Virus record (IMG/VR): IMGVR_UViG_3300024299_000001
Location: 32,001 to 96,000 of that record
Direction: 5' to 3' (one strand)
DNA length: 64,000 nt
Origin: a virus
Shown: positions 15,901-19,787 of the stretch, one piece after another
How the letters are laid out: each line of letters opens with the position of its first letter
Numbering within the stretch: the first letter of the stretch is position 1
The notes under the pieces: generated by a model
Database searches by the model: none
What the model was told of the DNA's origin: nothing
Seen by the model: the letters and a program-made list of their open reading frames with translations, nothing else
Program-made: the position numbers and the translations under genes

Positions 15901-18900
15901 TTAGCGTCAACAAACTGGCCGAATAAAATTTTAGTATTATATGCAGTAGGATTGAACTTAATTTTCTTGCCATTTACTGTTACACCTGTTATATTATACG
16001 CTGGAAACTGAAAATACTTATAGTAGTCTAATCCAGTAGCCTTCATTTGGGCCCCATAAAAACCCCAACCATAAGTTTGTACGCCTGATCCAGTACTCAT
16101 TTTATCTAAACGCGGTCTACCGTGTTTAAATCTTGATTCTTTTTGCCAAGTAACTGGACTGCCATGATATACTCTAGACGCAAGTGGAGCTGAACTTGTT
16201 AGTGTAGTATGTCCAAGCTTATTTCTGAGAATGTTACCGACGATCAAACCCATCTCATATCCAGATAAGTTCTCGGTCATGCCTAACTTACGTTTCAACC
16301 AAGCTTTAAGCTTGAAAACCATCTCTTTATAGAACGGGAGCTTTGTGTTAGCTTCATTCTGGATGTAGTGCATCAGAGTTTCTTCTTCCCATACTTCTGG
16401 TTTACTAGGATACTGTTCCTTTACCCAGTTATGTATATCGAGCAGGACTTTATCTGTCTTGATTCTCTTGGCTGCTGACGCTATGAAGCTGTTATACATT
16501 GCTTTGAATTGCTTGTCTGAAGCCAAAAGTAGATGACCGCCTTCATGGAGTATAACACCCTTGGCTCCACCAGCTCTCACAAGATTCTCAAGCACTAAAT
16601 ATAGCTTGCCTTTCCAGTAAACACCAGCAACTCTGTTCTTTTCACCTTTGGAGTACTTAGGATCGTCAAAGTCAAGTTCCTGAGTTGAGTCATATTCTTC
16701 GAGGTTAAACTCTTTCTTCACTCCATCTGGTAAGTCTTCCTGGTAGTCTACTGCCTCTACTTTTGACAGGGGGTCATCGATACCCATGTCTTGCATATCC
16801 TGCACAACTTGTGACTCTACGCCTCGAATTTTTATTTGTTCAGCTTTAGTTCTTTTAATGACTTTTTTCTTAGGTTTGGAGCCTTTCTTAGCTGGTTTCG
16901 AGCTCTTTTTAGCTTTCTTAGTAGTAGCGCTAGTCTTCTTCTTTTTAGTCGATTTTTGGCTATCTATAGGCTCCGACTTTTCTACTTTTTTCTTAGCTTC
17001 GCTCTGTGATTCAAGCTCGCGTATTTTATCTTCTATTTGTTTAGCAAATTCAGGGTCTTTCTTCTTATACTCAGTCAGCATACCTTTTAATTCAGCTATG
17101 CGCTTGTTAATAGCTTTAACAGATGGAGTACCACCAAAGAACCTATCAATAGCTGCACTCATTTCTTTTTTATCGGTGATAGGAGAAGATTCTTCTTTTT
17201 TAGCTTCGCTCTGTGATTTCTTAAGGTTCATTGTAGCATGCAGACGCTTTACTTTTAAATCATGAATTATCTTTTTTGTATCAGTTATAACGTCTTTATG
17301 TGCGCCACCTTCTTTGGCATGCTTTAATACATACTGCTGCCCGGCTATCTTGGCGTTAATTTTATCTAACTCAGATTGTTCTTTTGATATTACTTTTGTG
17401 TCTTTATTCTTTGGCTTTGGAAGCTTGGTACTCTTCTTTTTTGTCTTTGGCTTTTCTACTTTCGTCTTCTCTTTAGACTTAACCTGGCCTTTCTTATCTT
17501 TTGTAATTGTCTTCTCTTTGAACTTGGGTTTCCAGTCAATTGGTACCCAGCGAACTCTGCCGTCATCAAACTCAGCTCGTTTTATAAAACCTTTTTTCTC
17601 AAGGACTTTAAATGTCTGTGCAGTAACACCAGTTTTAGGACGCTCTTCTTTTTCCATGGCGTCAATGGCTTTTTGATTAAGCCACTTGAAATTACCAACA
17701 ATTTTCTTACCATCCATAATTACAGGATAAGGCTTATAATCGTTTTCATCCAGGAGAGATTCCTGTATTTGACCTAAAGCTAGACGTTGAAATTTACTCA
17801 GAGGCTTTTGCTCGCTTGCTTCAGCAGCGTTAAACGGTGTAAACTCTTTCTCTGTTTCATTCGATTGTACATATGGGCCAACTTTAGTCTTAGTATTTTG
17901 TTTTTTAAGCTGAGCTGAATATACTGTACTTGCAAACTCCGCTTGCATTACTTGTACTTCTTTTTTGTCTTTTGGTAGTCCTGTGTCATTCGTTTTTTTA
18001 TTTACATACGCAGTAAAGCTGGAGTGCTTCTTAGCAAAAGTTAACTTTTGAGCAAGAGACATCTTACCCCATTTTATAGTATCTGGCACAGGTAGTATAG
18101 AGTCTTTGTCTTTTACTTCTTCTGTCTCTTTCTTTAAGCCCTTAGTCTCGACCTTAATACTCTTCATATTAGCTTCGCCACGTAACTCATTCTTCTGAGC
18201 TGCTGAGTATCCTTTCCAGTCTTCTTCTGTTACGTTGGCAAGCTTGATTACTTCAGCATCAGATAGCTTCTTCGGCTTAGGTGTTTTCTTGGGTGCAGCT
18301 TCTGCTTCACCAGTGTCTTCACGTATAACAAAACCACCCTTAACTTGCTGAACTTTAAACTTTTTCTCTGGATCAAGCTTCCGTATCTTAAGAGCACCTT
18401 CTGCTTTTTTCTTTGTTGTATATGGCTTAGTACTACGTGCAGGAAGTAAGTCACTTTCAAGCATGTCACTTAAGTCTTCTTCAGTGATTACTTCTTCTGC
18501 ATCTGTGGTTTCTTCAGTTTCTTCTTCCTCTGTTTCTTCTATTGTTTCTTCTTCAGCATTCTCAGCAAACTGAGTAGTAGTTGGTTCTTGCTGTACTTCG
18601 TCTTGAATACTGTCAGGTACAGATAAGTCTTTTTTAATACCTGACTTAGTTGCTGCTACAAATGCACCAGCACCGCCTATAGCACCACCTGATACACCAG
18701 ATTCTACTATACGTTTTATATTCTCAGGTGTCAGAAACTTCTCATCTGTATTAGCAACAATATTAAGTATTGAACTTACTTCCTGACCAGCTTCCTGTAA
18801 CATTTCTGATGGTATATTTGTAAGCAGTTTTTTAGCAGCACGTTTTAAGTATGACCCAGGCATGCCTTTAGCAATAGCACCTACAAAGTCGTCAACTAAA

Positions 18901-19787: not shown

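Follow-up and report, generated by a model that had tools for sequence, protein, structure and literature searches.

Giant phage proteins and the locus examined

Phage-type polyvalent proteins are very large proteins with many domains; they are presumed to be carried inside the capsid and ejected into the host along with the DNA. The window analysed here, a stretch of 64,000 nucleotides of viral DNA (positions 32,001 to 96,000 of the IMG/VR record IMGVR_UViG_3300024299_000001), comes from an N4-like phage and encodes two giant proteins, one of the polyvalent type (called Giant 2) and the other a virion RNA polymerase (vRNAP) resembling gp50 of phage N4; the element in question is the N-terminal module, or head, with which both of them begin.

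9960..19787, minus strand: gene of Giant 2, a giant of the polyvalent type (3275 amino acids; list of open reading frames (ORFs) and translation)
27375..38186, minus strand: gene of the vRNAP, N4 gp50-like (3603 amino acids; phrog_2206, E=0)

The 3603-residue protein is an N4-type virion RNA polymerase of the gp50 family: its RNA polymerase (RNAP) domain and its C-terminal domain match N4 gp50 by BLASTP (E=5e-5 and E=2e-23, respectively), and the C-terminal domain is similar to the N4 vRNAP chains 9PNR and 11GP in PDB (E~1e-30). Giant 2 has no match to a hidden Markov model (HMM) of the RNAP domain, shows no similarity in PHROG and PDB sequence searches, and as a whole protein belongs to no Pfam or PHROG family. 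It does resemble the phage-type polyvalent proteins (Iyer, Burroughs, Anand, de Souza and Aravind, 2017), which are giant, multi-domain and encoded in late-gene clusters: it is a multi-segment protein of 3275 residues, encoded on the strand and operon side of the capsid, portal and vRNAP genes, with a putative peptidase region (HExxH) and a C-terminus that may be of the PLxRFG/LPD38 kind, and other proteins that carry the module hold LPD37, LPD38, LPD39, ART-PolyVal, InPase, PBECR5, SLT and RadC domains. The differences are that no LPD-series or other Pfam family falls on the N-terminal module (in 19 carriers and the two window proteins), and that Giant 2, apart from its ends, matches no catalogued cargo domain.

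In N4, injection of gp50 needs the N-terminal domain, whereas encapsidation maps to the C-terminal domain (PMC5512222, PMC13492108). The N-terminal domain (residues ~1-919) is invisible in both of the cryo-electron microscopy studies of 2026, and is predicted to consist of two helical subdomains with membrane-spanning helices at 224-278 (PMC13434306, PMC13492108); it enters nanodiscs, and its binding to gp51 and participation in an inner-membrane complex have been proposed (PMC13434306). Searches with this region recovered only N4-like phages (Iyer et al. 2017, PMC5512222). Like the N4 domain, the module of the window stands at the N-terminus of a vRNAP, ahead of a long linker, and consists of helices, among them Gly-rich hydrophobic segments whose order is similar.

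In the DNA ejectosomes of T7 (gp14/gp15/gp16) and DEV (gp73/gp72/gp71), the largest of the ejected proteins, whose N-terminal part associates with membranes, comes after two smaller proteins that form channels and are encoded upstream of it (PMC11445570, PMC13434306). The role proposed here is the same, and so is the gene order of the window; the differences are that Giant 2 has no sequence match to a PDB chain, the model of its N-terminal module has no fold match (in general searches, none of them aimed at T7 gp16), and the genes upstream of Giant 2 are unrelated. The MuF/SPP1 gp7 head domain is similar in concept, being a conserved terminal domain for virion association that carries variable effectors into the host (PMC5512222), but it is an unrelated domain, and no MuF (Phage_Mu_F) Pfam match was found in either giant or in 19 carriers of the module.

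Homology of the two N-terminal modules

The sequence-only reading of this DNA had claimed that the two giants share a collinear N-terminal module of about 350 residues. Taken by themselves and compared pairwise, the window sequences are too weak to decide homology: BLASTP with the first 400 residues of each giant gave E=1.3, and the Smith-Waterman score of the two heads was 72 as compared with 48+/-7.5 for 500 shuffles (z=3.2), two of which reached 72. Since these results and a shallow profile comparison (8 versus 2 sequences; 31%, E=5e-4) were weak, deeper family alignments were gathered, with 43 sequences of the Giant 2 type and 140 of the vRNAP type. Comparison of the two families by hhalign gave a probability of 99.6% and E=8.9e-25 over 293 collinear columns, aligning residues 71-388 of Giant 2 with residues 61-384 of the vRNAP, between which 49 of 322 positions are identical (15%). 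When each family HMM was built without its own window sequence, the vRNAP-type model scored Giant 2 at 32.5 bits (E=5e-9, residues 68-386) and the Giant 2-type model gave the vRNAP 20.5 bits (E=2e-5); among 2000 composition-matched shuffles, no score exceeded 9.0 bits. Intermediate sequences bridge the two types, one of them (the N-terminus of L035) matching the window vRNAP by BLASTP with composition adjustment (E=5e-9 over 328 residues) and another (P0047) matching the Giant 2 head (BLASTP, E=2.5e-5).

18624..19577, minus strand: Giant 2 module core, residues 71-388 (hhalign, leave-window-out HMM and AlphaFold2 (AF2))
37035..38006, minus strand: vRNAP module core, residues 61-384 (hhalign, profile search and AF2)

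The two copies of the module are homologous, and the module is an ancient, all-helical, Gly/Ala-rich domain of about 320 residues. Both window proteins contain the whole core in N-terminal position, together with its E-x-G and P-x-E...Q-E..Q motifs. The profile alignment and shuffle controls that had been suggested as a check confirm the claim (E=8.9e-25; 20.5-32.5 bits versus at most 9.0 bits); what did not hold was the extent, the core being shorter than claimed and starting only at about residue 60-70, with the first 60-70 residues of each giant forming variable leaders outside the module.

An extremely improbable explanation is chance or composition, two Gly/Ala/Lys-rich helical regions having aligned spuriously. 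The pairwise BLASTP result would fit it, as would the high bias term of the HMM match (19.6 bits), on account of which default HMMER filters drop the match, but the hhalign result, the shuffle controls and the bridge through L035, which persists despite composition adjustment, lead to its rejection, and the two heads are collinear in motifs, helix order and length. A recent duplication in this genome has even less to recommend it: two copies do lie in one genome, on the same strand and 18.4 kb apart, but at only ~15% identity their relationship is old. Each copy is much closer to the modules of other phages than to its partner, the vRNAP copy sharing 30-46% identity with more than 140 foreign proteins, the Giant 2 copy 33-45% with 41 IMG/VR loci, and no second giant lies within 10 kb of two vRNAP relatives; recent duplication is therefore also rejected.

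Conserved landmarks

Three pairs of short landmarks had been picked out in the two proteins from the sequence alone. All six strings are present at the residues given for them (W158/W150, G249/G242 and P326/P328), and the members of each pair align with each other in the hhalign family alignment.

19311..19322, minus strand: landmark 1 of Giant 2, VDWF, residues 156-159, aligned with VSWF
37734-37745, minus strand: landmark 1 of the vRNAP, VSWF, residues 148-151, aligned with VDWF
18987..19043, minus strand: landmark 2 of Giant 2, GMVGTVSQLEAGLNYGELL, residues 249-267; E258 and G260 invariant in the family
37407..37463, minus strand: landmark 2 of the vRNAP, GMASAGFGLEGGEIFGTLS, residues 242-260; E251, G252 and G253 invariant in alignment A7
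18777..18812, minus strand: landmark 3 of Giant 2, PSEMLQEAGQEV, residues 326-337; E328, Q331, E332 and Q335 invariant
37170..37205, minus strand: landmark 3 of the vRNAP, PVEFAEEYAQTA, residues 328-339; E334, Q337 and T338 nearly invariant

The conserved Glu/Gln motifs are E-x-G and P-x-E-x-x-Q-E-x-x-Q, and Y263 of Giant 2 is also among the invariant motif residues.

Distribution, position and cargo of the module

With the vRNAP head as query, an exhaustive HMMER search yielded at least 263 cluster representatives with E<=1e-3, 222 of them with E<=1e-10, whose matches cover query positions ~60-395 near the start of proteins of up to 5767 residues. The Giant 2 head had 7 homologues in a word-indexed protein search, in which low-complexity-like queries returned few matches (7, 1 and 4), and IMG/VR scans yielded 41 loci of the Giant 2 type and 26 of the vRNAP type, in which the module always opens ORFs of 850 to more than 3700 residues. 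The projected start of the module in 139 near-complete cases has its median at residue 39 and its maximum at residue 199, and no protein has two copies.

The cargo behind the module was surveyed for RNAP in 150 listed representatives and for Pfam domains in 19 non-RNAP giants. An RNAP domain is present in 7 of the 150 (only P0009-P0015, by BLASTP and RNAP-domain HMM), and the representatives without it share only residues ~70-365 with the window vRNAP. LPD38 occurs in 11 of the 19 giants, among which LPD37, LPD39, InPase, ART-PolyVal, SLT, PBECR5, a TnsA-like nuclease and GGDEF were also found; one representative (P0095) carries InPase, ART-PolyVal (two hits) and RadC. Heads and cargo have been exchanged: in P0095, P0019 and P0043 the vRNAP-type head is accompanied by a C-terminal segment of ~850 residues resembling that of Giant 2 (29-36% identity, E=1e-103 to 1e-139), a C-terminus also present behind heads of the Giant 2 type at L018, L038 and L041, and at L043 a vRNAP-type head opens a non-polymerase giant with Giant 2-like HExxH repeats. 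The module is strictly N-terminal, single-copy, cargo-independent and exchangeable, and the idea of a separable module ahead of different cargoes is strongly supported by the clusters, the rarity of RNAP among them and the head swaps. Polyvalent proteins of the phage type have it as their standard N-terminal head, and here it is found on an N4-like vRNAP as well. The identifiable upstream neighbours of its carriers in other phages belong to virion structural protein families.

The presence of two giants in the window seems unusual within a limited sampling, because no scanned contig has both subtypes and no further giant was seen within 10 kb of two vRNAP relatives. None of 47 loci had two module-bearing ORFs (short-pattern scans with flanks of at most 10 kb, which do not imply absence), and no contig name was common to the two pattern-based IMG/VR scans. 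P0095 is encoded on a 120-kb contig (L057; JGI 3300038436, Ga0394679_018127) beside bacterial menaquinone and methyltransferase genes, and because these genes adjoin it, its carrier may be a prophage.

Structure models and database coverage

Structure prediction had likewise been suggested as a check, and both heads come out as all-alpha in the AF2 models, with the same helix order, at moderate confidence (predicted local distance difference test (pLDDT) score 77 and predicted template modelling (pTM) score 0.66 for Giant 2; pLDDT 72 and pTM 0.55 for the vRNAP). In a Foldseek search of BFVD, both models match the first segments of giants of uncultured Caudovirales, with five targets in common, and several targets are named 'large polyvalent protein associated domain-containing protein'. 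The best PHROG match to the module is weak and partial (phrog_6958, E=5e-4 over 97 residues), no significant match was found in Pfam or NCBIfam (two window proteins, and for Pfam also 19 carriers), and the shared head has no description that we could find in the accessible literature. The module is an uncatalogued domain family inside a known protein class.

Fixed motifs hold invariant acidic and polar residues (in Giant 2, E258/G260/Y263 and E328/Q331/E332/Q335; in the vRNAP, E251/G252/G253 and E334/Q337), as might be expected if the module were an enzyme or a specific binding domain acting in the host, for example on the envelope, instead of a delivery device. This is quite improbable: besides the lack of significant Pfam and NCBIfam matches, the Giant 2 model (the only one searched) has no fold match in PDB (best E=1.3), some carriers already hold a separate SLT lysozyme-like domain, and the N-terminal position in 139 of 139 near-complete cases suits a targeting or translocation domain better than one effector among many.

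Relation to the N-terminal domain of N4 gp50

The sequence-only reading had appealed to N4 for the function of the module. The positional equivalence is clear, both domains standing at the start of a vRNAP; the case for homology between them is at most suggestive (P~1e-3 at best). An alignment of the N4-type domain was made from 17 GenBank sequences of Schitoviridae, and hhalign matched it weakly to the Giant 2-type family (18.6%, E (P)=1.3e-3, 247 collinear columns), pairing N4 residues 111-437 with Giant 2 residues 71-376; in this weak alignment, landmarks 2 and 3 are paired with 'MEAGGAYQQT' and 'ETVEEGVQGATGQ' of N4. The equivalent profile region of phrog_2206 matches Giant 2 residues 172-387 at E=0.064. 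Four conserved, moderately hydrophobic Gly/Ala-rich segments occur in the same order in both families and in the N4 domain.

The N4 domain differs from the window modules in its representation among sequenced phages: tblastn finds it in 219 GenBank phage records (essentially all annotated as vRNAP among the matches listed), whereas neither the two modules nor the consensus sequences of their families have a tblastn match in 50,697 GenBank phage records. Pantoea phage G19 (L056, PV483189.1 18373-28800) has a 10.4-kb ORF annotated in GenBank as 'metallopeptidase', which was considered as a second kind of protein carrying the N4-type domain; this was rejected and the ORF is read as a vRNAP annotated otherwise, because it lies between virion-protein and replication genes. 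Residues 254-452 of N4 gp50 (L044) weakly match (E=0.006) the N-terminal part of phrog_10089, 'DarB-like antirestriction', which has 4647 positions, a hint that N-terminal heads may be shared among ejected giants.

A mosaic block in a close relative

A close relative, an IMG/VR locus (L042), is 97-98% identical to the window DNA on the capsid side and 92% on the vRNAP side (blastn), except for a block that covers the start of the vRNAP gene and the 3' two-thirds of the gene directly upstream of it.

37973..39505, no strand: mosaic block, without DNA similarity to L042 (8383-10184) by blastn
38195..40042, minus strand: gene of a 615-residue protein directly upstream of the vRNAP; compared with the N4 gene order, it occupies the place of gp51, an ejection protein

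By sliding protein identity, the vRNAP is 22-80% identical to that of L042 in residues 1-300 and ~100% identical onwards, so that the replacement extends over the first two-thirds of the head. The protein in the gp51 position is 90% identical in residues 1-181, and its remaining 434 C-terminal residues are unrelated to those of L042 (BLASTP). This joint replacement fits a co-adapted pair, by analogy with the interaction proposed between the C-terminus of gp51 and the N-terminal domain of gp50 in N4.

Proposed function of the module

The ancient head of polyvalent proteins with which both giants start probably acts as their delivery part. The module would leave the virion first, as the leading portion of the protein on its way out, and would engage the ejection proteins encoded upstream, which for the vRNAP would be the protein in the gp51 position; it would then act as an anchor of the cargo, on or within the inner membrane, by means of the four Gly/Ala-rich helices, an arrangement modelled on the proposal for the N-terminal domain of N4 gp50. 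With a common delivery module, both giants would be injected by the same route, the vRNAP bringing transcription and Giant 2 bringing peptidase-like and uncharacterised domains. The sequence-only reading had passed from the shared module to a common portal-docking or ejection signal; that interpretation is partly supported: its modularity stands, and of the candidate functions ejection or membrane anchoring is a better-founded guess than portal docking because encapsidation in N4 maps to the C-terminal domain.

Several points weigh against the delivery function. Homology to the N4 domain is no more than possible: hhalign finds nothing between the N4-type alignment and the vRNAP-type family (0.6%), and an HMM of the N4 domain scores the set of modules at or barely above the level of shuffles. 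The Kyte-Doolittle means of the four segments (0.7-1.6) are mostly under the usual threshold for transmembrane helices. The alignments from which the two AF2 models were made share most of their rows, so that the similarity of the models is not independent support. The conserved Glu/Gln positions might belong to an enzymatic site, or to one for partner binding, that has nothing to do with membranes, and the joint replacement in L042 may reflect mere adjacency within one recombination tract.

The main competing explanation, which is unlikely, is that the module is a signal for incorporation into the capsid, by which each giant would dock to the portal, the scaffold or the core while the procapsid is being assembled. 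The C-termini of the two giants bear on it.

10074..11822, minus strand: C-terminal domain of Giant 2, residues 2656-3238, related to NCBIfam NF032893 'tail-700'/PLxRFG

The C-terminal domain of the vRNAP has no tail-700 match, and the possibility that it is related to the C-terminus of Giant 2 was rejected (hhalign 0.3%). The N-terminal head is therefore all that the two giants have in common, and if one docking site serves both of them it is the obvious candidate; terminal targeting domains are also known elsewhere, such as MuF on effector fusions (PMC5512222). On the other hand, it is the C-terminal domain of N4 gp50 that directs encapsidation and the N-terminal domain that is needed for injection (PMC5512222, PMC13492108), the window vRNAP retains an N4-like C-terminal domain, and most other carriers have a conserved LPD38/PLxRFG domain of their own at the C-terminus, which could serve for packaging.

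The delivery reading has a bolder form, which is tentative and on balance doubtful: the module would be a portable, cargo-agnostic 'injection handle' of tailed phages, forming with a co-evolving upstream ejection protein the inner-membrane end of the ejectosome, and its superfamily would include, as a distant branch, the N-terminal domain of N4 gp50.

Gene neighbourhood

Both giants are encoded on the late strand of the window, downstream of the portal, capsid and ejection-protein genes.

40601..42817, minus strand: gene of a 738-residue protein, phrog_2220, two ORFs upstream of the vRNAP; position of N4 gp52 by gene order alone
19798..23950, minus strand: three ORFs (534, 488 and 360 residues) directly upstream of Giant 2

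Upstream of the vRNAP there are PHROG matches to phrog_1357 (major head protein), phrog_2050 (virion structural protein) and phrog_2220, and the 738-residue protein has a homologue in Pantoea phage G19, upstream of the G19 vRNAP. The three ORFs upstream of Giant 2 belong to no PHROG family and do not resemble the ejection-protein genes that precede the vRNAP. The 488- and 360-residue proteins have weak homologues (E~5e-8 and 2e-8) in the same order upstream of the giant of another locus (L001 7015-8771), the head of which is the closest relative of the Giant 2 type, a hint that Giant 2 and its upstream ORFs may travel as a small cassette. The major head protein of the window (44579-46378) has 599 residues and matches only positions 25-348 of the 356-position phrog_1357, which points to a large insertion domain. 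DNA and protein searches of 50,697 GenBank phage records gave no match to the window region, and the window phage has no close counterpart among GenBank phages.

Remaining parts of the two giants

16533..16547, minus strand: HExxH motif of Giant 2, HEGGH, residues 1081-1085, putative zincin-like peptidase
30654-30668, minus strand: HExxH motif of the vRNAP, HELLH, residues 2507-2511

The HExxH region of Giant 2, which is common to other giants, has a weak match to Astacin (E=0.06) and no match to MPTase-PolyVal; a peptidase domain of N4-like vRNAPs has been described (PMC5512222). Discrete segments of Giant 2 recur in many other giants. Its C-terminus matches NF032893 at E=2e-22 and 79 bits, under the curated cut-off of 100, and is distantly related to C-termini of the LPD38 type (hhalign 86%, E=5e-6), the Pfam LPD38 model itself having no match in Giant 2. 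Residues 3014-3039, within this C-terminus, are the sole strongly hydrophobic segment of the protein.

Residues ~970-1190 of the vRNAP (window ~34617-35276) include ~170-220 residues that are absent from L042. Inspected by eye, this insert has strings of the R...S...E-x-E kind ('LFRG', 'GISF', 'DERE') reminiscent of ADP-ribosyltransferases, and it has no match in Pfam, NCBIfam or PDB sequence searches. The whole vRNAP gave no family at E<=0.1 in a Pfam scan, and its relatives P0010 and P0012 carry PF21867 (vRNAP_dom_2) and PF21894; either the protein is too divergent or the long-sequence scan missed the match.

Significance

How proteins of at least 3000 residues are packed and threaded into cells is a question that the two 2026 cryo-electron microscopy studies of N4 could not settle (PMC13434306, PMC13492108). 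The module offers an alignable domain with invariant residues to mutate, natural swaps in which one cargo has different heads or one head has different cargo, and a candidate partner in the gp51-position protein, which was exchanged along with the head in the close relative L042. The result fills a gap in the domain catalogues Pfam, NCBIfam and PHROGs, and the family reaches well beyond the window, to the vRNAP lineage and to hundreds of giant effectors with unrelated payloads. If the module suffices for delivery, it would be usable for loading phage particles with chosen proteins. If the portable 'injection handle' is real, the ejection mechanism of the vRNAP would be unified with the delivery of all phage-type polyvalent proteins, and the handle would fit almost any payload, including an RNA polymerase, so that one virion would inject several giant effectors.

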